DNA of 32,000 nt from Ignicoccus pacificus DSM 13166 (GCA_025340205.1 CP006868.1:1290001-1322000), one strand, 5' to 3'. Shown: positions 3 to 23,693, counted from the stretch's first letter. Notes: generated from the letters alone by a model not told the origin. Numbers and translations: made by a program.

Positions 3-566
3 GTGCTCTCGATAGGCAAGTACTCCATCATTTCCAAGGACGTGGGTCTAGTTGACGACGTTGAGAAGGTGTTCAACTTCTCTAAGCTCAAGGGTACCCA
101 TGGAATAGGCCACGTGAGGTTCTCCACGGAAAGCGCTGTAGATGCCCTTCACGCCCACCCCTTCCAGACCTTCGACTTCCCCGACATAGCGATCGTTCAC
201 AACGGTCAGATAACTAACTATTGGAAGAGGAGGGAGCTCCTAGAGCTGGAGGGTCACGTCTTCCAGACCGATAACGACTCCGAGCTGATAATTCATTATA
301 TTGTGAACAAGCTGAGGAAGGGCTACAAGCTGGAGGAGGCGCTTCACGAAGCAGTTAAGGACTTGGACGGTCCCTTCGCCTTCCTCATCTCCATGCCTGA
401 GGGAATTGGGATGGCTAGGGATAGGCTCGGCTTGAGACCCTTGGTTACCTCCGAGTATGAGGGTGTTTTCGTGGCCGCCTCGGAAGAGGTGGCTATCAGG
501 AAGGTACTTCCCGAGAGCAAGATTACCTACTTGAGACCCGGTGAGGTGGAAGTATGGAGGCCGTGA
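3..566 (+). CDS. Class-II (Ntn) glutamine amidotransferase subunit of archaeal split glutamate synthase (GltB domain-1 like), 5' partial
   Basis: The ORF runs in from the window edge. The translation carries GATase-2 signatures (HGIGHVRFST, VHNGQITNY, FQTDNDSELI, DGPFAF, RDRLGLRPL). It overlaps the next glutamate-synthase gene by 13 nt, which suggests coupling. Confidence 0.8.
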   Translation: MLSIGKYSIISKDVGLVDDVEKVFNFSKLKGTHGIGHVRFSTESAVDALHAHPFQTFDFPDIAIVHNGQITNYWKRRELLELEGHVFQTDNDSELIIHYIVNKLRKGYKLEEALHEAVKDLDGPFAFLISMPEGIGMARDRLGLRPLVTSEYEGVFVAASEEVAIRKVLPESKITYLRPGEVEVWRP

Positions 567-4692: not shown

Positions 4693-4770
4693 GCCGCGGT
4701 AGTATAGCCAGGCCTAGTATGCGGGCCTGTCGAGCCCGTGACCCGGGTTCAAATCCCGGCCGCGGCGCCA
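4693..4770 (+). tRNA. tRNA-Asp (anticodon GTC), CCA encoded
   Basis: I folded the cloverleaf by hand. Acceptor stem is GCCGCGG/CCGCGGC and D stem is GTAT/GTAT (two G-U pairs). Anticodon stem is CGGGC/GCCCG with loop CTGTCGA. T arm is CCGGG-TTCAAAT-CCCGG, the discriminator is G, and CCA follows. Confidence 0.95.
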
Positions 4771-4810: not shown

Positions 4811-5311
4811 TTATTGACCGAGCAACTTAGCTCGGATCTCTTCTGTGGAAGTCTCTCTAACGAAGATCACGTTAAGCCTTAACCTCCTAGCTTGATTTGC
4901 CATGCCCTTGTCGTCGGTTACGAGTAGAGAGTCCGTAAGAAGCGCCAATGCGAGGAAGTAAGTATCGAAACCGGACGGAGCAGTCGTTAATGCTACTTCC
5001 AGGGCCTTATCGTACACTACGTCCTCGTCAATAACTATGAAAGTATTGTTTAGACTCTCAACGACTTTTAGTACGTGCTCTCTCGGCATGCCGCTCCGCT
5101 TCAGTACCGATGCAACTTCTATTATGCCAGCTTTTGGGAAGAACACCTTATAGTTCATCTTCTCCAGCAAGCTCAGTATTACACGTATCTTCTGGCGAGT
5201 CTCTATCTCCCTCTTATAGATGTCTCTCTCCAAATACCTTGGTGGAGCCAGAACGCTTTTGGCTACGACGCTTGTGTCGAGTACAACTCTACCCATACAG
5301 CTTCTTGTCAC
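4811..5311 (-). CDS. vapC: PIN-domain ribonuclease toxin (VapC-like)
   Basis: The N-terminus VVLDTSVVAKSVL and the C-terminal LVTDDKGMA are typical PIN acidic motifs. It overlaps the upstream small antitoxin ORF. The start is probably the internal ATG at 5296 (MGRVVLDTS). Confidence 0.8.
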   Translation of the reverse strand: MTRSCMGRVVLDTSVVAKSVLAPPRYLERDIYKREIETRQKIRVILSLLEKMNYKVFFPKAGIIEVASVLKRSGMPREHVLKVVESLNNTFIVIDEDVVYDKALEVALTTAPSGFDTYFLALALLTDSLLVTDDKGMANQARRLRLNVIFVRETSTEEIRAKLLGQ

Positions 5312-5510: not shown

Positions 5511-5639
5511 TATACGTTGCCGACAGAGTCACCTAAGCTTTTTCCGATGCAATATTCATAATTAGACTCAAGAATTAGAGTGAACGTCACATTCCGTGCT
5601 TCTTTGTGTATCTGTATAAGGCTGGTTTTATAGCACGGA

Positions 5640-5684
5640 CCTGTCGAGCCCGTGACCCGGGTTCAAATCCCGGCCGCGGCGCCA
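5640..5684 (+). repeat. Exact 45-nt direct repeat of the 3' part of tRNA-Asp (att-like integration scar)
   Basis: A base-by-base comparison shows 4726-4770 is identical to 5640-5684 (cctgtcgagcccgtgacccgggttcaaatcccggccgcggcgcca). No 5' half of a tRNA precedes it. Confidence 0.9.
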
Positions 5685-7255: not shown

Positions 7256-7666
7256 TTATATTTCAAGAGGGTTTACCACTTCTACGTTTAATAATTTGGA
7301 TATCAAGTTAGCTTTCTTGCTTATCTCTTTATCTAGTGTTATGAACCTATCACAATTGAGTAAGTATGAGGATAGCAGATGTAAAGTATCTAGCGTCCTT
7401 AACTTGATTAAGGAGGAGAAACGTTCCATAAGTGAGATTAGTTCAGCAAGGCTTACGTCTACTATTCTCGCCCTAACTATACTTAGTGACGCCTTTGCCA
7501 ATACCTTCGGATCGTTAGCTACTCTAGAGAAGAATGAAATTAGCTCGGCGTAAACCAGAGGGGTCACCGTTCCCTTGCCGATCTTAAAGTTCCTTACCTT
7601 TTCATGATTCACATCATCTTCCACTACGTAAGAAATTATGAAAGAGGTATCTAGAAAATCGGTCAC
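7256..7666 (-). CDS. vapC: PIN-domain toxin (VapC-like)
   Basis: The N-terminus FLDTSFIISYVVEDD and the C-terminal FITLDKEI are typical PIN motifs. It overlaps the upstream RHH ORF by 4 nt. Confidence 0.8.
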   Translation of the reverse strand: MTDFLDTSFIISYVVEDDVNHEKVRNFKIGKGTVTPLVYAELISFFSRVANDPKVLAKASLSIVRARIVDVSLAELISLMERFSSLIKLRTLDTLHLLSSYLLNCDRFITLDKEISKKANLISKLLNVEVVNPLEI

Positions 7667-8232: not shown

Positions 8233-8631
8233 TCAGTTTTCTAAGTCTTTCTCAATTGCTTTAACTAACTCCTTCACTCTCTTTAATGCATCCTTTACAT
8301 GTTCCTCTTTGCACCATCCTTCGTAAAAGCAGACGTGCATTGAAGAAGCGCTCATCCAAGCATCATGAACCCACTCGCCCCATCTTTTCCTCAGCTCCAA
8401 TTCGTACTCCCACAACTGTCCATGTGAAGCTAACCTCTTCCCTTCCTTTACCAATGCGTGTGCTTTGATGGCTAAAGCAGCTGCTCCCCAGACCTTTTCA
8501 GCGGCTTGTCTGTAATCGCCTTTCCGAAGCTCCTCCTCAGCTTGTTTAAGGAATTGCTTTGCTTGTTCTAAGTAACTCAATTGCTTCAAGCTCAAAAGAG
8601 GTTCCCAGTATGACCCGCGGTAAAGGTTCAT
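8233..8631 (-). CDS. PaREP1-family protein (HEPN-like helical protein of unknown function)
   Basis: The translation matches the PaREP1 pattern as I recall it: LRKGDYRQAAEKVWGAAALAIKAHA, ...LASHGQLWEY..., ...SASSMHVCFYEGW. Confidence 0.75.
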   Translation of the reverse strand: MNLYRGSYWEPLLSLKQLSYLEQAKQFLKQAEEELRKGDYRQAAEKVWGAAALAIKAHALVKEGKRLASHGQLWEYELELRKRWGEWVHDAWMSASSMHVCFYEGWCKEEHVKDALKRVKELVKAIEKDLEN

Positions 8632-8678: not shown

Positions 8679-11423
8679 GTGAGGGTCCTAGCTCTCCTGT
8701 TGCTTCTAGCGATTACAAGCAAGGTCATAGCAATTTCCTTAACGCAACTATGGACGTTCAAAACTAACGGTGTAGTTGAAGCGCTAGCCTTCTCCGATGA
8801 CGGTCGTTTAGGAGCTGCCTCTTGGAATGGTTGTGCCGACATCTTGGATCAAAATGGAAATTTGGTGAGCGGATATTGTAGAGATTATGGCATGAACGAC
8901 GTCTCCTTCTGCTGCAACAAATTCGGCTTTGTTAAATTCTATCATTGGGATCTTGATGGAAACGTTTACATCTACGACCTCTCAACTGGAACTTGGAAGA
9001 AGGTGTACGTTGGAGATCCTTATGATTCAGCAATCACAATGCTCAAGGACGGCTTTCTGGCTGGTGGCGACAATCTCGCCTACTTCGACTTTCAAGGGAA
9101 CAAGAGGTGGGACGTGAGTATGAAGTACATTACAAACGGTCCAGCTGTTTACAACGGGTACGTTTACGTTCCAAGGTGGGATTGGCCTTCTGAAGGTAAA
9201 GGCGCTCTTACTATCCTCAAGCTCTCAGATGGAAGCGAGGTAAGGACCATAAAATTCAATGAAAGGGTTTTTGATACTCAAGTCTGTGGAAATTACTTAG
9301 CTCTTGGAACAGCTCATCACGTTTACCTTTATGACATTAGCAACCCAGCGAATCCAAGGCTTCTGTGGTACAGCAATTATTTAGCAAGTAGCTGTAGCGG
9401 AGGAGATTGTTGGGGGGCCTACAACGTCGCCTTCAGTCCGGATTGTAGGTACTTAGTGAGCACTGATAATGATGATTGGAAAATATACTTATTCGATACG
9501 CAAACTGGAAGGCTAGTGCTGGAGAGGAAGTTTAAGAATGATGTTAATGCTGTTGCTTGGTGGAGGGATAGAATAGCTGTTGGATTAGCTGGAGGTGGAT
9601 TAAGAAATGGTAAGATTTACATGTTCAAGGTTGAGGGATACGAGCCATATTTCGGCCTATCGCGAGATCAATGGAATTCCTTAACAGCTCAACAAAAAGA
9701 AGCTATAAGCAAGTGCTATTCGATTATCCACAACTCAAAGCTCTGTTATTCCTTCGTTAAAGCATTGGGAGGAAGAGTCAGTGTATCAAATTCTTTAAGC
9801 ACACAAGAGCTGTCTAAAACCTTAATGTGCTATGCTATCTTCAAAGACGCTATAGGATGTTTGAACTCAAAGTTGATCGTTAAACCTACCCTCTCACTCA
9901 CAATGCTCCCCAATCAACCTCTAACCCAACCGTTCACCCAAACGATCTTCCTCTCTTACCCAAGTAGCTCCACCGCGTTAACTACTGTAACGGTAACACA
10001 AAGCCAACCAGTAACCATAACCTTAAGCAGAATAACCTACGTCACAACGATTGAAATTCCGACTACAATTACCACGCTCGAAATCAATTACGGTCCTTCA
10101 AAGTTCCCAGCCCTCTCCAATGCTACCATCACCGTTACCGTTTCCAACCCAGCCGACTTACCAGCTGAGATAACGTTAGGAAGCTCGACGATAACGGTAG
10201 CTCCCCACTCTTCAGCACGAACTTCGACCATCACCTACCTCACCTCCACCGGAGTGATAAGGAAGACCCTAACCCTCCAGGCTTACGGAATTACCTATAC
10301 AAAGGGAATAACGGTAACTGCTACGGAGCCGAGAGTCAAAGCCTTCCCGATGCCACTTCTAAAGAGCGCCACGATCACCTATCCCTTAACACTGGTGAAT
10401 GAGGATAACATAATAGCCACCCTCTCAGCTCTTCCCAACCCGTTAGGGATATCTTCCATTCCATTAACCTCCAAAACGGTAACCCTAACGGCGACCTACT
10501 CCTTGTCATCAACTGTTCTAAACCTCAAAGCGTTCAAGTACGGAATTACTTTGACTATCCCAGTAACGTTTACCTCCACCTCTCTCCCAGTGACGATAAA
10601 GCTGCTCAACTCCAAGGTTAAACCTTTAATTCCCCAAACGTTGACGTTCTTGGTCATAGCCAAAGAGCCGGTTACCTTCTTAGGAAGAAGTGTTGAGGGA
10701 AGCTCCACGTTAACGACAGTAGTAACTCCCGAGTCAGAAGAGTTCAGGGAGACGTTAACGCTTACTTGGGCTAAAGTGCCATTAACTTTCACCTTGAGCT
10801 TAATAAAGCCCTATACCATATTGAAGAAAGAGCTAGTCGGAGCTATAGGTGTTCCGACCCTCCTGATCCCGCTGAAAGCGGATAGGGAGTTAACCGTGAG
10901 CGTTCCTGGAGGAACCCAAACGGTAGCTCAAGGACTGCAATTGGTGACCTTATCAATCGCTAACCTCAGGCCCGGAATCAAGGAATTCCCAATGAAAGTT
11001 TGTTTATCGAACTACTGTTTTTACGAAACCGTGAGAGTAACTCTGACTATACCAAAGGTAATAGTTAGAGTTCCACAGACTGTAACGGTTAACGTGAATC
11101 AATCCAAGGAAGTTTACATTACGATCATGAATCCCAACACGTTCCCGTTAATAGTTACTCCTAAGGCCGACGGAGTGTTCCTCAGAGTAGCAGAGGTTCC
11201 GGTAAGCCTTCCGCCTAAAGGAGTTGTGACAGTAAAGGCAACAGCCACAATGAACGTTTACGGAATAGCTAACGCAACGATCACCATACTGATAAACGGT
11301 ATTAAAGTAGTTACAAATGTGATTAGAGTAATAGCGGCTTTGAACTTCCTACCGACGAGCACCAAGGAAGTGATTCCTTTAGTGTTGCTAGCATTTGCTA
11401 TAGCGATAAGAAAATTTACCTAA
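8679..11423 (+). CDS. Large surface protein A: signal peptide, Cys-rich beta-propeller-like module, small Cys-containing helical linker, Thr/Val-rich Ig-like repeat stalk, C-terminal TM anchor
   Basis: The 914-aa ORF starts MRVLALLLLLAITSKVIA. The propeller-like module spans 8739-9655. The repetitive beta-rich T/S/V/L/P region begins around 9880. The C-terminus is VIPLVLLAFAIAIRKFT. Confidence 0.8.
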   Translation: MRVLALLLLLAITSKVIAISLTQLWTFKTNGVVEALAFSDDGRLGAASWNGCADILDQNGNLVSGYCRDYGMNDVSFCCNKFGFVKFYHWDLDGNVYIYDLSTGTWKKVYVGDPYDSAITMLKDGFLAGGDNLAYFDFQGNKRWDVSMKYITNGPAVYNGYVYVPRWDWPSEGKGALTILKLSDGSEVRTIKFNERVFDTQVCGNYLALGTAHHVYLYDISNPANPRLLWYSNYLASSCSGGDCWGAYNVAFSPDCRYLVSTDNDDWKIYLFDTQTGRLVLERKFKNDVNAVAWWRDRIAVGLAGGGLRNGKIYMFKVEGYEPYFGLSRDQWNSLTAQQKEAISKCYSIIHNSKLCYSFVKALGGRVSVSNSLSTQELSKTLMCYAIFKDAIGCLNSKLIVKPTLSLTMLPNQPLTQPFTQTIFLSYPSSSTALTTVTVTQSQPVTITLSRITYVTTIEIPTTITTLEINYGPSKFPALSNATITVTVSNPADLPAEITLGSSTITVAPHSSARTSTITYLTSTGVIRKTLTLQAYGITYTKGITVTATEPRVKAFPMPLLKSATITYPLTLVNEDNIIATLSALPNPLGISSIPLTSKTVTLTATYSLSSTVLNLKAFKYGITLTIPVTFTSTSLPVTIKLLNSKVKPLIPQTLTFLVIAKEPVTFLGRSVEGSSTLTTVVTPESEEFRETLTLTWAKVPLTFTLSLIKPYTILKKELVGAIGVPTLLIPLKADRELTVSVPGGTQTVAQGLQLVTLSIANLRPGIKEFPMKVCLSNYCFYETVRVTLTIPKVIVRVPQTVTVNVNQSKEVYITIMNPNTFPLIVTPKADGVFLRVAEVPVSLPPKGVVTVKATATMNVYGIANATITILINGIKVVTNVIRVIAALNFLPTSTKEVIPLVLLAFAIAIRKFT

Positions 11424-11428
11424 TTTTT
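11424..11428 (+). terminator. Oligo-T tract directly after the stop of surface protein A
   Basis: The sequence taaTTTTTac directly follows the stop. Archaeal terminators are typically short T runs. Confidence 0.35.
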
Positions 11429-11852
11429 ACGTTAGGTATGAGTACTTTTTGTCCACAATAATGACCTAATTGTCAATAGTAGGTGGAATAACTAGTTCAA
11501 GAGATCGTGAGAGAGTCATAGATTTCGTTGGAATCATCTATCGCTGATCATCTCACACATAGGTTAGGAAGAATTTTTGTAGAGATAGCAGAGAAAGTGA
11601 GCGTTCATTGAATCTGTTACAGGAAAGGCGAACTTACCTACTTTGATAGCTATTTGATCCCTTGATATTCCTTTCCTCGCCCGCGGCTCATCTTCTTCGG
11701 TTAGCTGATCGGAAGTAGCATACCTCCACATCTCCATGGAGCGTAACTGGATATCTAGAGGGGGTAGGGAGTTAAAATGAAAACCTTCAAATGGAATTTT
11801 TCCAACGTTCCAAGCTTTTATGCAAGCAATGGGGACGAAATAGGGCGGAACT

Positions 11853-12407
11853 TTGTTCCTCCTCGAAGAACTTCAAAGGAAAGCTAATGAGGAAAGGAAA
11901 TATCCTAAAGATCAAGAGTTCTTGGAAAGGAAAGCAATTGACGTAGTTTATGAAATGATTAAAGCTAAGGAATTGCTTGAAAAAGGAGATACGAGAAACG
12001 CAGCTGGAAAAGCATTCCAAGCCTGGAAGGACTTGCTCTCATGCTTAATTTATTTGAACTTGGATGAGTTAGCAAAGAACGAAAAGGAGAGGAAGTGGCT
12101 CTTAAAGAAAGGAATAATAGTTCCAACTACAAAGATGCAACAGTTGGCCTTGGAGCTTGAGAAGAGAGGCTATAACATGTTGAGCTTTATCACCGACAAG
12201 GCACTAAAGCTCCATAACTACCAATACAACGGTCCCGACCCAGACAATTATTACGGAGGGATAGTAAGCGAGGACGTAGCTAAGGAATATGTTAAACTAA
12301 TGTTAAGCGTTACTAAGGAGTACTTGGAGAGATACATACTTCCTAACATTAAGGGGGAGACTTTGAAAATGATCAGAGAGGGCTTGAAGCTATTGGAGTC
12401 CGCCTAA
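11853..12407 (+). CDS. PaREP1-like helical protein, paralog of 22105-22635
   Basis: KGDTRNAAGKAFQAWKDLLSCLIYL and ALKLHNYQYNGPDP follow the same pattern as PaREP1 (GD..A..K.W.A, then LH..Y.G). It aligns along its whole length with the ORF at 22105-22635. Confidence 0.6.
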   Translation: MFLLEELQRKANEERKYPKDQEFLERKAIDVVYEMIKAKELLEKGDTRNAAGKAFQAWKDLLSCLIYLNLDELAKNEKERKWLLKKGIIVPTTKMQQLALELEKRGYNMLSFITDKALKLHNYQYNGPDPDNYYGGIVSEDVAKEYVKLMLSVTKEYLERYILPNIKGETLKMIREGLKLLESA

Positions 12408-12432
12408 GAGCTCAGAGCATTCAAAAACGCTC

Positions 12433-14763
12433 CTACTGTACGGCAAGCGGTATGTTCACGCTCCACACACTCCCATCGATGAACGTTAACCTTAAGGTCA
12501 CTTGTGGCATGACGTTCACATTGACATTATCACAATAGACAATCAAGCTCCACAAGTCCTTCTTTATGCCAACTATATCATATAGATCAGCTTGATACTT
12601 ATGAGTTCCATCGTACGCCACGCTAACACTCCTTCCAGCCCATCTATCAAAGGTAATTATAGCGTTCGTCTTACGGAAGTTGGTCTCTACCTTAGATCTT
12701 GAAACGTAGACGAGCTCTAGTACGCCGTTGACTACTGTGGCAAAGGGTTTATAAGGAGAATAGAAGAGTGTGTTACCGATCTTACCTACCAAGATCCCTT
12801 TCTTAAGCATGGCGAAAGAGGCAGACGAATAGACGGCAGAATTCCCCATATCGCTCGTAGTGAATAATATTATTCCAGGAGCTATGGAATCCTTATCATC
12901 CACTTCTCTCTTACTCAATCCATGGTAACCGCTCACCACTATTCCAGAGATCTTGTTGACTGAGATAGGTTTTCCGGTCTTCAAGTCCTCAACCGTTCTG
13001 GATTGAGGTACTGATGTGCCAATGACGTTGGAACCGACGCTGGCGACCAAATACGAGTAGGTACAAATGGTTCTTCTCCCGAACCTGACTTCAACGGAAT
13101 CTAGAGGGATCTTCGGAGGATTCATGAACGATAGCACAAATACTACCCCTCTATCCCAGTAAGGTCCTCCAGTAGCGTTCATCGAGGGTGCCAAGAACGT
13201 GGCCTGGATCAAAGTTAAGATGTTTGTATTTGTAACTTTAATTGATGGTAATAGTTTGCTTAAGGTAACCGTATAAAAGCGCACCCACGGTTGGAAGATG
13301 GCGCTCAGCATTTGAGATATAACCTTTATCACGTCAGTGTAAACCTTCTCCAAGGTGGTTACCAAGCTCGAAGTTATTTCATAAAAGCTCAAGGCTGGCA
13401 TGAAGCTCCCTCCTAAGTACTCAGTATACGTGAGGGTCACGGTCTTCGTTATTTTAGCTACAGTTCCAGAAATTATTGGAGGAGACACCTTCATTACTGT
13501 TAACGTCTTAACGATTATGCTAGGCTTCAAGAAGGTTACGAGGCCGTGAGGAGGACTCTCTGTGGTTATCGTTTTCACTAAGCATATTGTATTCGTAACA
13601 GCCGCTTCTGGACAAATCACGTATCTTGTCGAAGCAGCTGCGCTGTTCAGTAAGATATATTTGTCGGTCGTGAACGTTATAGTAGTAACTTTCGTCTTTG
13701 TTACCTCTATTCCAAATGCCTCTGCCTTGACGACCCTTGATAAATAAATCGTTACTGTATTATTCCTTTGGCTCAAAGTACCGAAGAGGGAGGAGCTCAT
13801 AGTAACCGGAACTTCCTTGTTTGTCAACACGCTCAGCGTACCGTTAGCCCAAGCGGTGAAAGTTCCGATTCCAGTAGTTAGTGAGATGCTTTGGCTGACA
13901 GATGCCTTAGTCACGAACGTCACCAAATTTAAACTAGCCTTCACGTTAGGAACGCTGAACTCCTTCGCACTGAGCTGTTTACCATTAACTATGACAGCTA
14001 TGTTAGAACCTAATTTAATAGTACCACTTTTTAAATGTTCGTACTTCAGTTCTTCGCCCCTAACGTCTAAAACTATTACGATACCTTTACTTGCTATTGC
14101 AAAGACTGAACAATTAGCATTGAACATAACATCACTCACGCCTTTTATATAAGTGTACCAAGCTGGAGTATGTTTACTGAACTTGAAGTAGTATAAGCTC
14201 AACTTATCGTCAGAGGGGGAGTAACTTACTAAATAGTCCGAGCAGACGTCGAAGACTGTTCCATCGTACCTACCTAGCACCTTGCCGCTCTTCAAATTAA
14301 TCAAGTAAGCCTTGTTAGACGTTATCGCTAGTACCTCGTCCCCTCTTACCTTTACCTCCTTGATCCCGGGAAGATCCAGCGACCAGAGCTCCTCGGTTCC
14401 GTTGAATGCCCTTATCCAATCCTCGCCAATTACTATTATTACATTCTTAAAGGCAAATACATCCTTACCATTTATCGGGATCACGATACCTTTGGGTAAT
14501 ACTACCAATCGATCGCTATACAACAAGTACTCCTTCCCGCAACAGTAGTCCGCAGAAACCACGTTGCACTTCACGTCCTTTATATGTAACTCCTTATCCA
14601 TGAAGTATGCACAATTGCCAGCGACAGCTACTATTCCGTCGCTCTTTACCTTAACGATACCAACTTGATTTGGAAGGACCACGTTGAAGTACGCTAGCAG
14701 CACAGAAGTTAACAGCAGCGCTATGAGGGACCATCTCAAGAGCTCTTCCCTATTTGTTAGCAA
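12433..14763 (-). CDS. Large secreted/anchored protein B: N-terminal signal-anchor, divergent copy of the Cys-rich propeller-like module, Thr-rich beta region, unknown C-terminal beta-rich domain
   Basis: The 776-aa ORF lies 45 nt downstream of ORF C on the same strand. The likely start is the TTG at 14739 (MRWSLIALLLTSVLLAYF). Module motifs present are GNCAYFMD, SADYCCGKEYL, VCSDYLVS and FNANCSVFAIAS. Confidence 0.75.
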   Translation of the reverse strand: MLTNREELLRWSLIALLLTSVLLAYFNVVLPNQVGIVKVKSDGIVAVAGNCAYFMDKELHIKDVKCNVVSADYCCGKEYLLYSDRLVVLPKGIVIPINGKDVFAFKNVIIVIGEDWIRAFNGTEELWSLDLPGIKEVKVRGDEVLAITSNKAYLINLKSGKVLGRYDGTVFDVCSDYLVSYSPSDDKLSLYYFKFSKHTPAWYTYIKGVSDVMFNANCSVFAIASKGIVIVLDVRGEELKYEHLKSGTIKLGSNIAVIVNGKQLSAKEFSVPNVKASLNLVTFVTKASVSQSISLTTGIGTFTAWANGTLSVLTNKEVPVTMSSSLFGTLSQRNNTVTIYLSRVVKAEAFGIEVTKTKVTTITFTTDKYILLNSAAASTRYVICPEAAVTNTICLVKTITTESPPHGLVTFLKPSIIVKTLTVMKVSPPIISGTVAKITKTVTLTYTEYLGGSFMPALSFYEITSSLVTTLEKVYTDVIKVISQMLSAIFQPWVRFYTVTLSKLLPSIKVTNTNILTLIQATFLAPSMNATGGPYWDRGVVFVLSFMNPPKIPLDSVEVRFGRRTICTYSYLVASVGSNVIGTSVPQSRTVEDLKTGKPISVNKISGIVVSGYHGLSKREVDDKDSIAPGIILFTTSDMGNSAVYSSASFAMLKKGILVGKIGNTLFYSPYKPFATVVNGVLELVYVSRSKVETNFRKTNAIITFDRWAGRSVSVAYDGTHKYQADLYDIVGIKKDLWSLIVYCDNVNVNVMPQVTLRLTFIDGSVWSVNIPLAVQ

Positions 14764-14808
14764 GTGAGATAAAATCAGAAAAACCTTTCCACCTAAAGGA
14801 TCAAGATC

Positions 14809-17800
14809 TTAGAGTCTCTCCATCATCCTAGCTATAGCGTAAGCCAACATGATCAATCCCGCTATTCCCTCGAAGCCGCTGCCTCCCGGTGGAACCGCTA
14901 TTATCTTCATCAATACGGTTGTCAACGTTCCTAAGCTGTTTGTTATGAGTACGGTTGCGGTGACGTAGCCGTAGTACTTCAGAGTGCCTGTGACCGGTAT
15001 CGCTACCTTAGCGAGAGGCTCTATGGTGATTACGCTCGTCGGGAAGCTTAAGCGCTTATCGCCTATTAAAGTAACTACCATCCTTACGGGGAACGGGTTT
15101 GAAAGCACTAGCAATGTCGTGTTACTCCCTATACCCCTTATGGTCAAAGTAGGAGTCCTTACAACTATAGGCCTTGGTATGCCTACGTAATAGCAAGTGC
15201 CCGTTAGGGAGGTACAACCGCTCGAGAAGCACGCGCTGAAGTACAAGTCGTTGCATCCAATCGTCGATGGAATGAACACCAGTGAAGTAGTTAGCGTGGC
15301 AGAAGGACTCAGAGATACCTCGTACCAGTCGTTGTAAGCCCCGCTCACGGACAAGGTGAAGTAGTACGAGGTGTTTGCTAGATTACTTACGGTAATCGGT
15401 ATCGTCAGAGGCACTCCTATACGTCCTTCCGCATATTCGGGAACTATCGTTAGGGGCTCTAAGGGGCTCACGTAGCTTTGTGTGGTGAACAAAGTGTACG
15501 TTGAGCTAACAACGACTAGCGTGACATAAGTGGGTCTTGTGAAGGTCCTCTCGAACGTCACAGTGGTCCTATTTGAAAGCAAGGTTATCTCTCTAGAGGA
15601 TCCGTCCAGTAAGAGCAGTATTGTAGCTGGGGACCTCGCCGACTTGGATAGTACAACGTATAAGCTAGCTGGCAAGTAGCTGTAGACGTCGTTAGCGTAG
15701 AACCTTTCGACTGAGATAGGGACCTTTGGAACCACCATTATCACTCCTAAGAGCCTTTGTGTTCCAACGCCCAACTCGAAGGTGTTGACGGTAGCGCTCG
15801 TTCCGGCCTTGCCGACGAGCGTTATGACGTTTGTGCCCGGAACCAAGAGCGCCCTCCCGACGGCGTTGGAGTTCACGTAGCCGGTAGCGAGGTATGTCCA
15901 GCTGTCCTTGTTTATAGCTGTGAACGTCACCTTGTAGCCCTTGCCTATCGGAACAGTAACGGTCGTGATTCTAGGTATAAGAGACACGTCAGGAGTTATC
16001 GAGAAGATTGATAGCTGCGTCCTCCAGTTGCCTATCGCAAGCGTTACTGGGGTCGTGATAACGGGTAAGAGTATAGTAGTCGTTCCGTAGAGCGTCGTGC
16101 TTACTAACTCAGTAGTTCCCTCGAGGACGTTCAAGGGTACGATCACGTCCTTCAGAGCGTTAATTACCTTCACTGGAACTACTATAACTGACCCCTCAAG
16201 ATACGGAAGCGTTGAGGGGGACACAGAATAGGGCATAATAAAGTAGTAGTTTAACGTGGCGGTAGCTAAGACCTTTCCTAAGTACGTGACTGACACGTAA
16301 GCAGTCCCGTTGAACTCGGTTAGCGGAGTGATGGTCACTGGGTACAGAGTAATCGCTTTAGGGGGAATTGGTAAGGTTTCAGAACCTAAGGTTACGGTTA
16401 AGGTGTTCGAATACGGGTTCAGCAGCTCTACAGCTATCTCTGAGCTGATTCCTAGTGGAACGGTAATCGTCTGTGGAACTATCTTTATGCCGATAAATGG
16501 CGTAATAACTAACGCCTTAATCTTGTGCTCGGCTATCTTTTTACCATTCAAATAAACGCTTATCGGTATCGAGCTTACGTCCCAACCATTCAACAACACG
16601 TTTATCGTGGTTGTGGTGTATCTAGGAGGAACGGTGATGTAAATCGTTTGAGACTTCATCAATAGGGTAGCTGTGTAGGGCTCGGTGAAGTTGTTAAGCA
16701 GCGTTACGGTCGCCTTCGTCGGAAGGCCCGGAACGTAAGCGACTTTTCCTTCAATGCTAATGGGGACGTAGAACCAGTACCTTACCGGTATTACAGCGAG
16801 GGTAACGTTTCCGGACCTTAGTGTTAAGGTAAACGTCTTGGCGCTGAGCGATGGAGAAATATACAACATTAGATGATTGGTCCTCGGGACTAGTATCATC
16901 TTACCCAAGGTGAAGTTGTTAACCATTCCAGTAGCAACGAAGCTTATTGGTAGCGTATTGGTTACGGTTACAGTATGGGTGGCCGTCAGAGGGTAAGCCC
17001 AGCTACCCCTTTCGGTAATAGTAACCGGTTTAAGAGTTTCGGGTACGACGCTAATTGTAGTTATGGTGCTAGTGTTATCGTATAGTAATTGAAGAGGTAT
17101 GTTGGTTAAGTTCCTAGCTACCATCACTAATGGAATAACCGTCGTGTGGGTGGGAAGCGTTACCTTAGCGGAGAGAGGGGCAACGCTTACATTTATTGGA
17201 ACCAAAGTAAGGGTTACCACCTTGCCTAAGTTGTTAGCAACAGTAAGGTTAGCTATCTCTGTTGCGCGTGGAACAATTGTTATAACCTTGCTAACTTCGA
17301 TAGGTTTTATGACCCTTATCGTATATGGATAAGAGGTTAGGGTCTTGTTATTTACCAACAGGTAGACGGTGTGCGTGACGGTTCCTATCCTACTCAGCGT
17401 GATGACGTTGCTTAGTGTGGTATTTCTACTTAGAGTTAAGGTGGTGGACCTTAATCCCTTCACCGTTAAGGTCACTGGCACAGTTTCCAAGTTAATTATC
17501 ATAGTTTTTATAGTCTTTGTGCTGTTTATTATTCCTTTAATTGAAGTGGGCGTGACTATGAGTACTGCGTTAGGTAACACCTTCCTGAGGGTTACCGTTC
17601 TTTCAGCTAACGTGAAGGCATCGGAAAGGACTTTCATCGTTAACGAGCTTAGCGGATACGTTAAGGTGAACGTGGAGATAGATGAGATGGTATTGGTTAT
17701 TCCGTCAACAATCAACGTTAGAGGGCTTGTGGGAGCGGGTGTGAGGGTGACAGTGTAAGTGTTAGCCATTCCGTACTTGAAGGTCGTCGGTGATACGGCT

Positions 17801-18120
17801 ATTGAGTAGGGGTACGTGTAGACTACCGTTATCTTTTTGGTTAAGTTTAAACCTATTTCGTTAGTAAACGTGAGAGTTTCGTAGGCAGTAGTTGTAGATT
17901 GATAGGGATTCAAGGTATATGTTATTGTAGTAGTGTTTAAAAGCACCATCATCGATATCGGGATACCTCCTCTCATTACTGTTAAGGGTATAGGAGTTTT
18001 CTCTTCATTGGATAAGGTCAGTGGCAAGGTAGTGGTGCCTACTCCCATTGTGGTGATGGTTGGCGATACTTTTAGTGCCATCGCCAAGGGAAGTAGGATC
18101 AGGAGCAGCGTCCATCTCAC
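14809..18120 (-). CDS. Giant Thr/Val-rich all-beta surface glycoprotein candidate C with signal peptide and C-terminal TM anchor (S-layer/sheath-like)
   Basis: The 1103-aa ORF starts MRWTLLLILLPLAMALKV. Low-complexity-like Ig/CARDB-style segments recur (e.g. LTIPITVSNLANTSYYFTLSVSG). More than a dozen N-x-S/T sequons are visible. The C-terminus is GIAGLIMLAYAIARMMERL. Confidence 0.75.
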   Translation of the reverse strand: MRWTLLLILLPLAMALKVSPTITTMGVGTTTLPLTLSNEEKTPIPLTVMRGGIPISMMVLLNTTTITYTLNPYQSTTTAYETLTFTNEIGLNLTKKITVVYTYPYSIAVSPTTFKYGMANTYTVTLTPAPTSPLTLIVDGITNTISSISTFTLTYPLSSLTMKVLSDAFTLAERTVTLRKVLPNAVLIVTPTSIKGIINSTKTIKTMIINLETVPVTLTVKGLRSTTLTLSRNTTLSNVITLSRIGTVTHTVYLLVNNKTLTSYPYTIRVIKPIEVSKVITIVPRATEIANLTVANNLGKVVTLTLVPINVSVAPLSAKVTLPTHTTVIPLVMVARNLTNIPLQLLYDNTSTITTISVVPETLKPVTITERGSWAYPLTATHTVTVTNTLPISFVATGMVNNFTLGKMILVPRTNHLMLYISPSLSAKTFTLTLRSGNVTLAVIPVRYWFYVPISIEGKVAYVPGLPTKATVTLLNNFTEPYTATLLMKSQTIYITVPPRYTTTTINVLLNGWDVSSIPISVYLNGKKIAEHKIKALVITPFIGIKIVPQTITVPLGISSEIAVELLNPYSNTLTVTLGSETLPIPPKAITLYPVTITPLTEFNGTAYVSVTYLGKVLATATLNYYFIMPYSVSPSTLPYLEGSVIVVPVKVINALKDVIVPLNVLEGTTELVSTTLYGTTTILLPVITTPVTLAIGNWRTQLSIFSITPDVSLIPRITTVTVPIGKGYKVTFTAINKDSWTYLATGYVNSNAVGRALLVPGTNVITLVGKAGTSATVNTFELGVGTQRLLGVIMVVPKVPISVERFYANDVYSYLPASLYVVLSKSARSPATILLLLDGSSREITLLSNRTTVTFERTFTRPTYVTLVVVSSTYTLFTTQSYVSPLEPLTIVPEYAEGRIGVPLTIPITVSNLANTSYYFTLSVSGAYNDWYEVSLSPSATLTTSLVFIPSTIGCNDLYFSACFSSGCTSLTGTCYYVGIPRPIVVRTPTLTIRGIGSNTTLLVLSNPFPVRMVVTLIGDKRLSFPTSVITIEPLAKVAIPVTGTLKYYGYVTATVLITNSLGTLTTVLMKIIAVPPGGSGFEGIAGLIMLAYAIARMMERL

Positions 18121-18263
18121 TTCGACGTTCCCTTGCTATACATTTGCTCCTTTGGCCTTATCTCTTCTCTTCATCCCAATTAGGGACTGCTTACTGCCCG
18201 GATCCCTTATCACATCTCGGAGAATCTCCCTTCATAAAAACACCTTAAAGGTCCAGCTCTACA

Positions 18264-21128
18264 TTGTATTATGGTGTGAATGTGAGATCAACACTATCCT
18301 TGTTGCTCTTACTCTCGCTGACATTCGCCCAGAGCTACCTAATGATCGTCCACAACCCAAATTCCCAGACCTTAACGAACTTCCAAGTTAGAGCGAAGCT
18401 CCCTGCAGATCTTCAAGGGAAAGCCCTTACCATCAAGGACATGAATGGCAATCCAGTTCCCTTCTGCTACGAAACGGCAACTGGAGAGTGCACCACCGAT
18501 CCAACTCAAGGAGATGGCTACGTATGGGTGAAGGTTCCTTCAATTCCAGCAAATGGAGATGCTAAGCTAGTTGTAGAGGTTGGAAGCAATGGAGCGGTGA
18601 AAGGGGATGAAGTGTTTGAGTTTTATGATGATTTTAATGAGGGTTATTTAGACACAAATAAGTGGATAAAGGTAAAGGATGAGGGAAACGAGATCGTTGT
18701 AAGGAGTGGGTACTTAAAATTAGAGGAAACGAGTGCCAATAATAACGGCGTCATACTGTCAACAGTAAAAAACTTTCCAGACAACATCGTGATAGAAGCC
18801 AGAGTAATAGTCAACTATGCCAGTACAGGTGACTTAGATCCGATGATCCACTTTGATAAGTATACGAATCCTCTCTGGAACCCAGATGGAAGCAATTATT
18901 GTCTTACCTTCTATTTTGGTGAAGATAGAAATTGGGATGGGGTATACCTTGGACTAACAAAAATTATAGACTTACCAAAACCTCCCTCAGGCACTCCTAT
19001 TACATTATACTTCATCCCCAAGTCCGGAAATATAAACGCATGCATCGGTACGTCTTGCGGTACATCTTCAGTAAAACATAGTTGTAATTATGAAAACGTA
19101 ATACTCATGATAAACATGTTAAGAGATGACGGTAAAACATATTTGTTAGTTGACTGGATCCATATTCGTAAGTACGCCCCCATCGAACCAACGGTAACCT
19201 TCCAAGCCTACGGAGGCTATCAAGCCCCCTCAACCGTTACCGGAATGAGCCAAGTGTGGAGCTACGATATAGGCTCAAGCGTGGAGGCCCTGGCCTTCTC
19301 GGATAATGGAAATCTCGGGGCCGCTTCCGTGGACCGCTGCGCTTACGTCTTCGACCAGAGCGGTAACCTCTTGAACAAGGTCTGTGGAGACGACTGGATG
19401 AACGACATCTCCTATGCCAACGGGAAGTTCCTGGCGGACAACTACGACAACTACCTCTACGTAATGAGCGAGCGAGGCACTTTGATCAAGAAGCTCGAGG
19501 TAGGGGAGAGCTACGATGACGGAGTTACCGCCTTCTCCCAAGGATTTATCGTCTGCGACGATTATTGTGCCTACTACAACTGGAACTACGAGAAGATCTG
19601 GGATACCTCGGTGGGAAGCAACACCCATACCAGCGGTCCCGCGATAGCTAAGGGCTACGTTTACGCTCTAGCGGTGGACAGCGGCAAAGTGAAGATAATC
19701 TCCCTCTCCAGCGGGAGCGTGGAGGGAAGCGTTACCTTAGATGGAGATGCCTACGACGTCGCCGCTTGCGGGAACTACTTGGCTGCTGCAAGCCAAGACA
19801 AGCTCTACTTGTACTCCTTGGACGATCCAACTAGTCCTACCTTGCTCTGGACGAAGGACATTAGCCTAGGGGATGCTGACTACCGCTCCTTGGCCTTCTC
19901 GCCCAACTGCAAGTTCCTGGCCTTGGCTGACACAAACAACGATCAAGTAGATATATTCAACGCGAAGACGGGAGCTATCGTTTACACAAAGGACTTCGAC
20001 AGGCCCACAGCCGTCGCTTGGTGGAAGGACGAGCTAGCCGTAGCGCAGAAGGACGGCTCGATCTACGTCTTCAGGCTAGAAGGATTCAAGGGCCCCGCCT
20101 ATTCTCCTACACCCAGCTCTTCTACGATCACCGGCCTAACTCTACTATGGAGGCACGGGTTCAGCGGAACGGCTGATGCTGTAGCGATAGCTGACAACGG
20201 AAACGTAGGAGTTGCCAATTACGACAACTGCGCCTACGTGCTGAGCAAGACCGGCTCCGTGCTAGGCAAGTACTGCGGAGGGGATGACGTGGACGACGCC
20301 TCTTACTGTTGCGGCAAGTTCGGCTTCGCTGACATAGACGACTACGACTACTTCTTAGACGTGACCGGCAACTACCTAAAGGCGATACATGTAGGAGATG
20401 ACTACGACTTCGCCATAACAATGCTTCCCAACGGCTTCATAGCTTGCGACGATTACTGCGGCTACTTCACCTACTCCGGAAGCCAGATCTGGAGCACGGA
20501 GCTTGACGGAGAGGCTAGGAACGGCCCAGCGGTCTACAAGAGCTACGTCTACGTTCCGGACTACGGAGAAGACGAGGTAGAGATACTTAGCTTGAGCGAC
20601 GGAAGCGTTCTCAACAAGATGAGCTTTAGCAGCGCGGTCCACGACGTTGGAGTCTGTGGGAAGTACTTGGCCGTGGTTACCAGCAACAAGCTGTACCTCT
20701 ACAAGCTAACCGATCCGACCGACCCTACCTACTTGTGGAGCGTTGGAAACATTTACATAAACGACGAGTACAGCCAGAACTTGGCCTTCTCTCCAGATTG
20801 TAGGTACGTAGCGGTAGCGGATACCGGAAACAGGGCCTTGAAGATTTACGATATCCAAGGGAACTTAGTCTTGAAGAGGAGCTTCCCTGACCCGGTGAGA
20901 GGGGTGGATTGGAGAAAGGACTGGATAGCGGTGAGCTCGGGATACTACGTGTACCTCTTCAAGGTGGAAGGGTACAAGCCCCAAGGGGCTCCGGTGACCA
21001 AGGCACAGATGACTACAGTTACGAACACGGTCACGGTGACCAAGAGAGTAGGAGGATTGTCCACCAATATAATAAAAGAGATAACGAAATTGCCGAGGGG
21101 CAACGTTACGTGGACCATACCGGGTTGA
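18264..21128 (+). CDS. Large secreted protein D: signal peptide, DUF2341-like + LamG/ConA-like head, two tandem Cys-rich propeller-like modules; no TM anchor
   Basis: The 954-aa ORF more likely starts at the GTG at 18282 (MRSTLSLLLLLSLTFAQS). LTNFQVRAKLP...GYVWVKVPSIPANGDAKL...VFEFYDDFNEGYLDTNKW resembles DUF2341 followed by a LamG-type domain. The two modules span 19245-20100 and 20135-20985. Confidence 0.8.
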   Translation: MYYGVNVRSTLSLLLLLSLTFAQSYLMIVHNPNSQTLTNFQVRAKLPADLQGKALTIKDMNGNPVPFCYETATGECTTDPTQGDGYVWVKVPSIPANGDAKLVVEVGSNGAVKGDEVFEFYDDFNEGYLDTNKWIKVKDEGNEIVVRSGYLKLEETSANNNGVILSTVKNFPDNIVIEARVIVNYASTGDLDPMIHFDKYTNPLWNPDGSNYCLTFYFGEDRNWDGVYLGLTKIIDLPKPPSGTPITLYFIPKSGNINACIGTSCGTSSVKHSCNYENVILMINMLRDDGKTYLLVDWIHIRKYAPIEPTVTFQAYGGYQAPSTVTGMSQVWSYDIGSSVEALAFSDNGNLGAASVDRCAYVFDQSGNLLNKVCGDDWMNDISYANGKFLADNYDNYLYVMSERGTLIKKLEVGESYDDGVTAFSQGFIVCDDYCAYYNWNYEKIWDTSVGSNTHTSGPAIAKGYVYALAVDSGKVKIISLSSGSVEGSVTLDGDAYDVAACGNYLAAASQDKLYLYSLDDPTSPTLLWTKDISLGDADYRSLAFSPNCKFLALADTNNDQVDIFNAKTGAIVYTKDFDRPTAVAWWKDELAVAQKDGSIYVFRLEGFKGPAYSPTPSSSTITGLTLLWRHGFSGTADAVAIADNGNVGVANYDNCAYVLSKTGSVLGKYCGGDDVDDASYCCGKFGFADIDDYDYFLDVTGNYLKAIHVGDDYDFAITMLPNGFIACDDYCGYFTYSGSQIWSTELDGEARNGPAVYKSYVYVPDYGEDEVEILSLSDGSVLNKMSFSSAVHDVGVCGKYLAVVTSNKLYLYKLTDPTDPTYLWSVGNIYINDEYSQNLAFSPDCRYVAVADTGNRALKIYDIQGNLVLKRSFPDPVRGVDWRKDWIAVSSGYYVYLFKVEGYKPQGAPVTKAQMTTVTNTVTVTKRVGGLSTNIIKEITKLPRGNVTWTIPG
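19245..20100 (+). repeat. Propeller-like module copy D1 (intragenic tandem duplication, protein level)
   Basis: VWSYD..VEALAFSDNGNLGAAS..RCAYVFDQSGN..VCGDD...IVCDDYCAYY...ACGNYLAA..KLYLYSL..AFSPNCKFLALAD..VAWWKDELAV..SIYVFRLEGFKGP aligns with D2 and with ORF A. Confidence 0.8.
20135..20985 (+). repeat. Propeller-like module copy D2
   Basis: LWRHG..ADAVAIADNGNVGVAN..NCAYVLSKTGS..YCGGDD..SYCCGKFGF...IACDDYCGYF...VCGKYLAV..KLYLYKL..AFSPDCRYVAVAD..VDWRKDWIAV..YVYLFKVEGYKPQ. By eye it is roughly one third to 40 percent identical to D1. Confidence 0.8.
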
Positions 21129-22104: not shown

Positions 22105-22635
22105 TTAGACACTCTCCAACACCTTCCTCAAATCCTCATCCAAATAGTTCCCAAAGTGCTTATCCATGATCTCTTTCCACTTCCTCAGTAACCTCTTCAA
22201 GCTGTCCAACGCTTCCTCCTTATCCGCTGGTCCTCCCCATAATCCTTCGGGATCTGGACCGTTGTACTGGTAGGTATGCAAATAGAGTGCCTTGTCAGTC
22301 CAAGCGCTTATGTCCTCTAACCCAATATCTTCCAACAAGGAGCTTAGGACCCTAAGCTTGGAACTAGGAGCATATATTCCCTTCTTTAAGAACCACTCTT
22401 TCTGCCTTTCATCCTTCAATAATTGCAATATTTCCTCCTTCTTCAAGTAAAGTAAGGCAGAAATTAGATCCTTCCAAGATTGGAAGGCTTTCCCACAAGC
22501 GTTCCTGATGAGACCCTCCTCAGCTAGCTTCTTCGCTAAGAAGGCCTCATAGATGGAATCTTCTATTTTCTTTTTGATGAAGTTGTCCTTTGCTGGCTCC
22601 TCAAGCTTTTCCTTTGTCTTCTCCAAAAGGGACAT
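22105..22635 (-). CDS. PaREP1-like helical protein, paralog of 11853-12407
   Basis: EEGLIRNACGKAFQSWKDLISALLYL, FLKKGIYAPSSK and ALYLHTYQYNGPDPEGLWGG are colinear with the ORF at 11853-12407. Confidence 0.6.
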   Translation of the reverse strand: MSLLEKTKEKLEEPAKDNFIKKKIEDSIYEAFLAKKLAEEGLIRNACGKAFQSWKDLISALLYLKKEEILQLLKDERQKEWFLKKGIYAPSSKLRVLSSLLEDIGLEDISAWTDKALYLHTYQYNGPDPEGLWGGPADKEEALDSLKRLLRKWKEIMDKHFGNYLDEDLRKVLESV

Positions 22636-23147: not shown

Positions 23148-23693
23148 GTGGGTGGTGGAATGGAGCGAATTGGCGAAGTTCTGGAAGCTTTGAAGAGAGT
23201 TGAGATCGAGCGGTTGAGCGCTATGGCCTACGCCTCGTGGGTTCCCCTAGTAGCTCTGGGGAGCTTCCTAAGCGCCCTCACCGGCAACCCAGCCTTCTCT
23301 CAGGGGCTTTGGGGCTTGGGATTGATCCCCTTCGTTTGGACCGTGAGGAGGCTTAACAGATTGGGGAGGGAGACCAGAAAGTGGAACGGAAAGCTCACCG
23401 TAGCCCTAGCATCAGCCCTCGGAACTTCCCTCGCTTTGGCCAAAATACCGTTGCTCAGCTTAACGATAGCTACGATAGCCATAATCATTGCAGTAACCCT
23501 AGCCAGGCCGAGAGTCTCGTGGATAGAGCTGGTTACCGTAGCTCTGATCGCTCTCTTAACGAGCTTAGGTTCCCAAAGGTTAGGAGCTTGGGAGGCGTTC
23601 TCCAGTGCCTTCGTGATAGGGTTATCCTTCGCTACGCTGGCCCACTTAGCCTACGGAGTGTACGAAGTGGTGCCCTATGTTGAGAGAGATTAG
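23148..23693 (+). CDS. Multi-pass membrane protein, unknown function
   Basis: Four to five hydrophobic helices are visible (WVPLVALGSFLSALTG, LWGLGLIPFVW, LTIATIAIIIAVTLA, LVTVALIALLTSLG, FVIGLSFATLAHLAYG). The probable start is the ATG at 23160. It overlaps the downstream wHTH gene by 17 nt. Confidence 0.55.
   Translation: MGGGMERIGEVLEALKRVEIERLSAMAYASWVPLVALGSFLSALTGNPAFSQGLWGLGLIPFVWTVRRLNRLGRETRKWNGKLTVALASALGTSLALAKIPLLSLTIATIAIIIAVTLARPRVSWIELVTVALIALLTSLGSQRLGAWEAFSSAFVIGLSFATLAHLAYGVYEVVPYVERD

Follow-up and report, generated by a model that had tools for sequence, protein, structure and literature searches.

A predicted cysteine-rich WD40-type propeller in a cluster of large modular proteins of Ignicoccus pacificus

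Introduction

The Ignicoccus envelope has two membranes, inner and outer, with a wide compartment between them. Among archaea that possess an outer membrane, Ignicoccus is the best studied; one of its species hosts Nanoarchaeum equitans, and very few proteins of its envelope or of its contacts with other cells are known. Here, we describe four large open reading frames (ORFs), A to D, clustered in a 32,000-nucleotide (nt) stretch of the I. pacificus DSM 13166 chromosome (CP006868.1, 1290001-1322000; hereafter the window). An initial annotation had taken them to encode a dedicated cell-surface apparatus of envelope proteins, all built around a shared and unnamed Cys-rich module resembling a beta-propeller. 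We find that three of the four carry a divergent, predicted WD40-type propeller belonging to a large family, that one of these propellers is joined to a domain homologous to an adhesion-fiber subunit, and that the four genes are not a conserved apparatus.

Several described systems bear on these proteins. Methanosarcina mazei surface-layer (S-layer) proteins combine a YVTN propeller with PKD domains. The I. hospitalis adhesion fiber is built from Iho670 (PDB 5KYH), a type IV pilin-like subunit. In the same species, 10 WD-40 paralogues (Igni_0008, 0114, 0419, 0434, 0435, 0477, 0541, 0561, 0808, and 1434) were described as the genome's most intriguing expansion (Podar et al. 2008, PMC2614490). 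Ignicoccus lacks an S-layer (PMC4243693), and its two membranes separate and re-form during the life cycle (bioRxiv 10.64898/2026.09.08.750209). Methanococcus type IV pilus loci encode large proteins with DUF2341, a domain also ascribed to PilY adhesins, and these proteins have been compared to the tip adhesin PilY1 (Makarova, Koonin, Albers; PMC4858521); a DUF2341 gene in the epd locus of M. maripaludis is a repeated target in a transposon screen for transformation defects (PMC10133366), and annotation elsewhere counts the domain among the components of type IV pili-like systems (PMC11809585). DUF2341 is also fused to ExbB/TolQ-like proteins (PMC12505986).

Results

A divergent propeller module in three of the four proteins

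All four predicted ORFs are present on their expected strands (Table 1), and exact protein look-ups identify A, B, C, and D as IPA_07595, IPA_07610, IPA_07615, and IPA_07620 of the 1,685,057-bp I. pacificus DSM 13166 chromosome; all four are annotated as hypothetical. The shared module had been aligned by eye in A and twice in D, and both BLAST and profile comparisons agree. A residues 20-323 match D residues 624-906 with 39% amino acid identity (E 5e-59) and D residues 327-609 with 35% identity (E 9e-51), and a family hidden Markov model (HMM), built from relatives outside the window only, scores the A copy at 1e-115 and the D copies at 1e-91 and 3e-95. The recurrent strings listed for the module are present in the family alignment (A1). 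An ORF at the window edge, in which the C-terminal half of the module had been recognized, matches HMM positions 159-274 (E 1e-24), and we therefore regard it as a full family gene cut by the window end, not as a half module.

The copy at the N terminus of B, described initially as divergent, is weak in direct comparisons (BLAST E 1e-3; hmmsearch E 2e-4), which are nevertheless collinear over ~200 residues; it scores about 3e-5 by BLAST against the family members P0034 and P0168, and it aligns with the family profile in hhalign over 194 columns with 95.3% probability (E 2.3e-8). Cys landmarks kept in this copy are GNCAY, KC, YCCGK, VCSDYL, and FNANC. The family HMM finds no module copy in C, and three, not four, of the large proteins thus carry the propeller.

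A propeller fold had been suggested from the FSPD-like periodicity of the module, and structure prediction bears this out. The second D copy, modeled by AlphaFold2 with a 39-sequence alignment (A2), has a pLDDT of 96.5 and a pTM of 0.93, with 28 strands arranged as seven blades of four; an N-terminal strand precedes blade 1, as in the 'velcro' closure of WD40 propellers. Foldseek returned 1678 PDB matches to the model at E<=0.001, and all among the matches listed are propellers, the best superposition among them being WDR5 (TM-score 0.87, rmsd 2.3 Å). In sequence comparison, the family profile matches 89 PDB sequences at E<=0.001, the best being 2YMU, a Nostoc WD-40 protein (E 2.8e-37).

Scans of A to D with Pfam and NCBIfam models gave above-threshold matches to DUF2341, ANAPC4_WD40, and, marginally, DUF5711, which leaves the module, B, and C without coverage by any named family. 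ANAPC4_WD40 (PF12894) passes its threshold in D (37.3 bits versus a cut-off of 22.9), whereas WD40 itself (PF00400) falls under its gathering score of 27 in both A (19.4 bits) and D (22.9 bits). The seven-blade fold, the WD40 profile matches, and this pattern of Pfam scores together point to a divergent WD40-superfamily propeller, and the sequence and model comparisons indicate a divergent, lineage-specific subfamily of seven-bladed WD40-type propellers. The description of the module as unnamed thus holds insofar as the Pfam and NCBIfam scans of A to D contain no dedicated model for it, but it is clearly a WD40-superfamily member, and the Ignicoccus WD-40 expansion has been known since 2008 (PMC2614490).

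We also considered a PQQ-repeat or BamB-type propeller and rejected it: the predicted blade number is seven, PQQ_2 scores 27.0 against a cut-off of 27.6, TIGR03300 scores 30.3 against 285, and the TM-score to BamB is 0.63-0.69.

Conserved cysteines are gained and lost in pairs

WD40-type propellers usually have Gly as the last residue of the string FSPDG. As the initial annotation had noted, this Gly is replaced by Cys in the module, and we find Cys at the position in 97% of family copies. The six to nine conserved Cys positions proposed per module correspond to eight alignment columns, and the window copies keep six to eight of these. Cys is present at columns 174 and 218 in 97-98% of copies, at 105 and 109 in 82%, at 33 and 48 in 75-76%, and at 59 and 60 in 45%. 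Gain and loss are strictly pairwise, with co-variation (phi) of 0.85 for 33/48, 1.00 for 59/60, 1.00 for 105/109, and 0.57 for 174/218, and cross-pair values close to zero.

The vicinal CC pair (59/60) and the CxxxC pair (105/109) are anticorrelated (phi -0.43), and 20 of the 22 members lacking CxxxC have CC, as if the two pairs compensate for each other. Half of the members without the 105/109 pair (11/22), a subfamily that includes A, carry a 9-residue insertion with its own CxxxxC. The A propeller keeps C33/C48, the vicinal CC, and C174/C218, lacks the blade-3 CxxxC, and has the CxxxxC insertion at aa 239-244.

The predicted secondary structure places residues 33 and 48 in blade 1, where the ends of strands c and d face each other, the vicinal residues 58 and 59 in blade 2, residues 104 and 108 where they close the b-c hairpin of blade 3, and residues 175 and 223 in the a-b turns of two adjoining blades, 5 and 6. 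Pairwise gain and loss, with partners on neighboring strands or turns, is the behavior expected of disulfide staples; the total Cys count is even in A, B, C, and D. We infer that the module may be stabilized by four such staples, within blade 1, at the CC of blade 2, at the CxxxC of blade 3, and linking blades 5 and 6. Stabilization by either disulfides or metal had been proposed; the co-variation argues for the former, and the individual dispensability of three of the four pairs makes metal less likely.

A large family whose named members are from Ignicoccus

An exhaustive profile search identified 235 representatives below 1e-30, and the fetched proteins contain 126 near-complete copies in 123 proteins. 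All named members are from Ignicoccus; the remainder are unnamed or metagenomic sequences, including those from Desulfurococcales and other archaeal metagenome-assembled genomes (MAGs). I. pacificus has at least 10 members (IPA_01165, 01505, 01585, 02555, 02980, 06310, 06735, and 08795, together with A, D, and the edge ORF), and I. islandicus has at least four (EYM_01615, 02635, 06285, and 06575). A profile scan of a genome collection, with neither I. pacificus nor I. hospitalis among the genomes returned, found five loci in two Desulfurococcales MAGs. No I. hospitalis sequence is among the named family matches, and no paper came up in a literature search on the WD-40 locus tags of that species.

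Of the family members, 42 have signal-peptide-like N termini and 20 have C-terminal anchor tails; in several members, the propeller is followed by an alpha-helical tail. In the tailed proteins (20/121, for example, P0002, P0132, P0134, P0148, and P0179), a Thr-rich linker leads to a [VI]P.P motif, then to ~13 hydrophobic residues, and finally to a tail rich in Arg and Lys, and C termini of this type occur in the window at 11367-11420 and 14812-14874. The three-part arrangement resembles an archaeosortase-type layout and may act either in sorting, as a signal with no name so far, or simply as a tail anchor; the NCBIfam CTERM sorting models have no match at E<=1 in A to D or in six tail-bearing family members.

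B ends in a domain related to the adhesion-fiber subunit Iho670

B consists of a hydrophobic segment (aa 11-29), the diverged propeller, a Thr/Val-rich spacer, and a C-terminal domain of 283 residues (aa 493-775) that is homologous to nearly the whole globular domain of Iho670. A phmmer search of PDB aligned this domain with residues 24-302 of the 303 residues of 5KYH_A (E 3.9e-24), with 34% identity in a MAFFT alignment, and the two have in common the blocks LTLIQAT, PFAT, YVS..VETNFR.T.A.I.FDR, and C.NVN.NVM.

The segment directly preceding the Iho670-like domain (TLEKVYTDVIKVISQMLSAIFQP) is charged and amphipathic, and is not a hydrophobic pilin helix. The sole hydrophobic segment of B lies about 460 residues upstream of the domain, the B N terminus gave no match to the Iho670 helix in PDB, and we saw no class III signal or [KR]-[GA] cleavage motif in B by inspection. 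Without a hydrophobic pilin helix before the Iho670-like domain, B cannot be an ordinary filament subunit. A metagenome scan for the Iho670-like domain gave 150 pattern matches, none of which was confirmed. A word-indexed search of B and C against 5.8 billion clustered proteins returned only self matches and no full-length homologue; for B this is partly a sensitivity artifact, because phmmer against PDB did find Iho670.

A DUF2341 head in D

The signal peptide of D is followed by a DUF2341 head, then by two propellers, and last by a short Thr-rich tail that carries no anchor. The DUF2341 assignment made initially is clear (PF10102, E 1.4e-14, 54.7 bits versus a cut-off of 23.4), and MAG proteins and two proteins of I. 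islandicus, EYM_02635 and EYM_06285, keep the head. An AlphaFold model of the head, built from four sequences, has a pLDDT of 53.9 overall and is confident only in the first ~100 residues, the rest being below 50. Neither Foldseek nor a PDB profile search gave a significant match to the head, and the LamG-like part suggested for it is not confirmed.

The base composition of D is a mosaic (18282-20990), with 42.7% GC in the DUF2341 head and 54% in the two propellers. This could reflect a recombined gene or a plain effect of amino acid composition.

Stalk-like regions in A and C

The module of A had been described as mounted on a Thr-rich region with a C-terminal anchor, and the Thr-rich region indeed ends in a tail anchor. 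A comprises a signal peptide (aa 1-19), the propeller (20-325), a helical linker with four Cys (326-400), a Thr/Val/Leu-rich region (401-890) that is presumed to form a beta-rich stalk, and a hydrophobic tail followed by RK. The linker (9654-9878), with its CYS..LCYS and CYA..GC motifs, is common to P0129 (45% identity) and P0189.

C is 16.8% Thr and has 16 N-X-S/T sequons, and its C-terminal part is homologous to that of A (Table 1), with 24% identity over 402 columns by BLASTP (E 1.5e-6). The C-terminal hydrophobic tails of A and C fell below the hydropathy threshold used here and were seen by inspection, that of C with a basic end. Signal-like N termini had been attributed to all four proteins; hydrophobic segments of this kind are present in A, B, and D, and inspection finds a signal peptide in C only if GTG 18120 is the start. 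IPA_07615 is annotated to start 11 codons within the ORF (18087-18120, minus strand), which would drop the signal peptide; GTG 18120 restores it (MRWTLLLILLPLAMA). C lies upstream of B on the same strand, and the two are probably cotranscribed because only 45 nt separate them. The B spacer, the A C-terminal region, and C matched nothing in phmmer searches of all fetched proteins and loci.

The four genes do not form a conserved set

Relatives of A and D are found in contexts that differ from the I. pacificus cluster, as shown by the A-like P0001 and P0137 and the D-like EYM_02635. In the last of these, whose gene is surrounded by housekeeping genes, the domain order of D is reversed, with the propeller before DUF2341. 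The orthologue of the A propeller in one MAG (JBPMCF010000059, locus L011, 524-3744) is a free-standing protein of 374 aa with 60% identity and a near-identical signal peptide; 45 nt downstream of its gene is that of a 683-aa protein, which combines a diverged propeller with Thr-rich segments, an anchor at its N terminus, and a helical tail. This gene pair loosely parallels A and B of I. pacificus. Another MAG has an 886-aa member standing alone, plus a divergently transcribed pair of propeller and DUF2341 genes. The paralogues tend to cluster and to recombine with DUF2341.

With B and C lacking full-length homologues and the A and D relatives lying in unrelated contexts, there is no conserved four-gene apparatus, and the dedicated cell-surface apparatus envisaged by the initial annotation is not borne out. 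The four-gene set appears, from these comparisons, to be unique to I. pacificus.

The surrounding region

The cluster lies in a zone of 43-47% GC, compared with 50-56% in the flanking housekeeping genes, and this zone is bracketed by tRNA-Asp and tRNA-Val. Toxin-antitoxin-like genes are abundant in the low-GC cluster region: three PIN-domain genes and three PaREP1 (HEPN-like) genes lie around or inside the cluster (Table 1), the latter with Pfam E values of 8e-19, 4e-26, and 3e-19. Two of the PaREP1 genes, those at 11853 and 22105, share 42% identity. With its low GC, its PaREP1/HEPN and PIN genes, and its two bracketing tRNAs, the region looks like a variable zone.

The final 49 nt of the tRNA-Asp gene recur 914 nt downstream with 98% identity, and the sole content of the repeat interval is a PIN-domain gene. 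This duplication of the tRNA 3' end looks like an att-type remnant of a small integrated element. As an origin for the whole region, an integrated element is ruled out for the cluster, since the repeat spans only 0.9 kb and stops short of it.

Two further ORFs of 490 and 181 aa have no Pfam match, and the latter looks, by inspection, like a multi-pass membrane protein. The edge ORF overlaps the start of a class I lysyl-tRNA synthetase gene by 17 nt, and its N terminus falls beyond the window.

Table 1. Coordinates of the cluster genes, their domains, and neighboring features in the window.
Feature	Position	Strand	Remarks
ORF A (IPA_07595)	8679-11423	+	914 aa; exact match to UXD22712.1
Propeller of A	8736-9653	+	Family HMM; A-type subfamily
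ORF B (IPA_07610)	12433-14763	-	776 aa
Iho670-like globular domain of B	12439-13287	-	phmmer versus PDB 5KYH
Diverged propeller of B	14044-14646	-	About aa 40-240; hhalign, hmmsearch, BLAST
ORF C (IPA_07615)	14809-18120	-	1103 aa from the GTG; 1092 aa in the annotation
C-terminal ~380 residues of C	14830-15975	-	Homologous to A aa 551-909
ORF D (IPA_07620)	18264-21128	+	Annotated start GTG at 18282, giving 948 aa
Head of D	18327-19253	+	DUF2341 (Pfam, aa 78-135) and ~200 beta-rich residues ending DWIHIRKYA
Propeller 1 of D	19242-20090	+	Six conserved Cys, without the vicinal CC pair
Propeller 2 of D	20133-20981	+	All eight conserved Cys; copy used for the model
Edge ORF E	31430-31999	-	C-terminal half of a further propeller-family member, then a charged helical tail
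PaREP1 gene, flanking	8233-8631	-	Pfam
PaREP1 (HEPN-like) gene between A and B	11853-12407	+	Pfam
PaREP1 gene, flanking	22105-22635	-	Pfam
PIN-domain gene	4811-5311	-	Within the tRNA-Asp repeat interval
PIN-domain gene	7256-7666		
PIN-domain gene	29184-29543		
tRNA-Asp	4693-4770		Last 49 nt, 4722-4770
tRNA-Asp repeat	5636-5684		
Glutamate synthase ORF	554-2701		
181-aa ORF	23148-23693	+	No Pfam match
490-aa ORF	25037-26509	-	No Pfam match
Cbf5	26701-27759		
Class I lysyl-tRNA synthetase	29914-31446	-	

Discussion

We put it at somewhat better than an even chance that these modular proteins are exported to the surface and encoded in a species-specific island, and that their propeller is a binding head, likely in adhesion or surface recognition; the island is possibly associated with the adhesion fiber. 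Four large modular proteins, exported by the Sec route to the surface, would then be encoded in a variable chromosomal region. WD40-type propellers usually serve as binding platforms, and those of the cluster may do likewise. A would display its propeller on the Thr-rich region with its C-terminal tail anchor, and C would be a propeller-less protein with a C-terminal part resembling that of A; D would carry two propellers beneath a DUF2341 head, and B would fuse a diverged propeller to an Iho670-like globular domain. All four could be adhesins or surface receptors that are exposed either on the outer membrane or in the compartment between the two membranes.

Several points weigh against this interpretation. 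Paralogues cluster in two MAGs (those with loci L001 and L011), and there may be some functional coupling between neighboring family members. Thirteen members, including IPA_06310, IPA_01505, and IPA_02555, have an N-terminal extension without a hydrophobic segment and may be cytoplasmic. The folds of the A Thr-rich region, of C, and of most of the D head are not confirmed, and the argument for the putative disulfides is drawn only from co-variation and strand topology. The habitat of Ignicoccus is sulfidic and strongly reducing, and exposed disulfides may not persist there.

A closer tie to the fiber, in which the cluster would encode accessory or tip proteins of an Iho670-type adhesion fiber, is in our estimate unlikely, though far from negligible. 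B would dock through its Iho670-like domain, D would be a PilY1-like tip adhesin, and together they would set binding specificity. The near-complete Iho670 globular domain in B and the DUF2341 domain in D both point toward an adhesion fiber, and PilY1 also carries a propeller. The likening of the Methanococcus DUF2341 proteins to PilY1 (PMC4858521) and the recurrence of the epd-locus gene in the transformation-defect screen (PMC10133366) fit as well. However, genes for a pilin, an assembly ATPase, a TadC-like protein, and a prepilin peptidase are all absent from the 32-kb window, and no pilin-like gene adjoins the family relatives in loci L006, L009, and L011. B lacks both a pilin helix and a class III signal motif, the D propellers are of the WD40 type, with no PilC/PilY1-type propeller family among the Pfam matches of A to D at E<=1, and the occurrence of DUF2341 in ExbB/TolQ-like proteins (PMC12505986) loosens its association with pili.

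We speculate, with considerable doubt, about a fiber tip or adaptor complex whose components are not related to the minor pilins of bacteria. As a 'helix-less pilin', B would mimic the next subunit with its Iho670-like domain and present a disulfide-stapled propeller, D, with DUF2341 and two propellers, would take the PilY1 role, and the genus-wide family expansion would provide interchangeable binding heads for contact at the cell surface, between cells, or between host and symbiont, in the only archaea in which two membranes are known.

There is also a small chance that the propeller family consists of structural organizers of the Ignicoccus envelope, which would tether or scaffold the two membranes and the compartment between them, or shape vesicles. 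The I. hospitalis WD-40 paralogues were proposed to act in complexes, in compartments, or in the interaction with N. equitans (PMC2614490), and Ignicoccus has two membranes that come apart and re-form (bioRxiv 10.64898/2026.09.08.750209); the named family members are all from Ignicoccus, many members are predicted to be exported and tail-anchored, and several have an alpha-helical tail. A scaffold would, however, predict conserved orthologues and synteny, whereas B and C are species specific and architectures are shuffled between species, and the I. hospitalis WD-40 genes are not confirmed as family members.

Vicinal CC and CxxxC motifs are redox active or metal binding elsewhere; methanol dehydrogenase, a propeller protein, has a vicinal disulfide next to its PQQ, and quinoprotein dehydrogenases have eight blades, compared with seven here. 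That the paired Cys are functional, in redox chemistry or in binding metal or sulfane sulfur, with the propellers as extracytoplasmic carriers or sensors of sulfur or polysulfide in a sulfur reducer, is very improbable, since the presence of these motifs, the anticorrelation of CC and CxxxC as if they were alternatives, and the weak PQQ_2/BamB model matches are countered by the dispensability of three of the four pairs in 18-55% of members, which suits staples better, by loss that is strictly pairwise and not four-way, by PQQ-type scores that are all below threshold, and by a cluster with no redox partner gene.

The module has an ordinary fold, the four genes do not make up a conserved machine, and what we say of function we infer. 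What is new is a lineage-restricted family of WD40-type propellers, exported in many members by prediction, with a diagnostic pattern of four Cys pairs, and its recombination with stalk-like, DUF2341, and fiber-subunit domains. B provides a first sequence-level hint that ties some propeller-family members to the Iho670 adhesion fiber. IPA_07595 to IPA_07620 and their paralogues are concrete candidates for study, and the predicted disulfide map is testable.

Comparison with known systems places these proteins among several types of surface molecule. S-layer proteins with a YVTN propeller and PKD domains and anchored S-layer glycoproteins are similar in having a signal peptide, a propeller, a presumed stalk, sequons, and a C-terminal anchor with a basic tail; the proteins described here differ in having no match to PKD, PGF-CTERM, or other CTERM models and no sign of a lattice. 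PilY1/PilC adhesins and the Methanococcus Epd DUF2341 proteins (arCOG03508; MMJJ_08210) are, like D, large exported proteins that combine DUF2341 with a propeller and are proposed adhesins, but the D propellers are of the WD40 type, D has no listed von Willebrand A match, and the cluster lies outside pilus loci. B covers nearly the whole Iho670 globular domain in its residues 493-775, and differs from Iho670 in being a 776-aa protein in which that domain is C-terminal and preceded by ~490 residues that include a propeller.

The I. hospitalis WD-40 expansion is comparable in scale at the genus level, with ~10 WD40-type genes there and at least 10 in I. pacificus, a comparison by description and locus tags only; the 2008 description mentions neither signal peptides nor Cys pairs, nor any fusion to DUF2341 or an Iho670-like domain. 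Finally, the module has the seven four-stranded blades of WD40 propellers such as WDR5 and 2YMU, and the strand-turn-strand signature AFSPD-x-x-x-LA; it is set apart from them by four co-varying Cys pairs and by the export signals carried by many family members.

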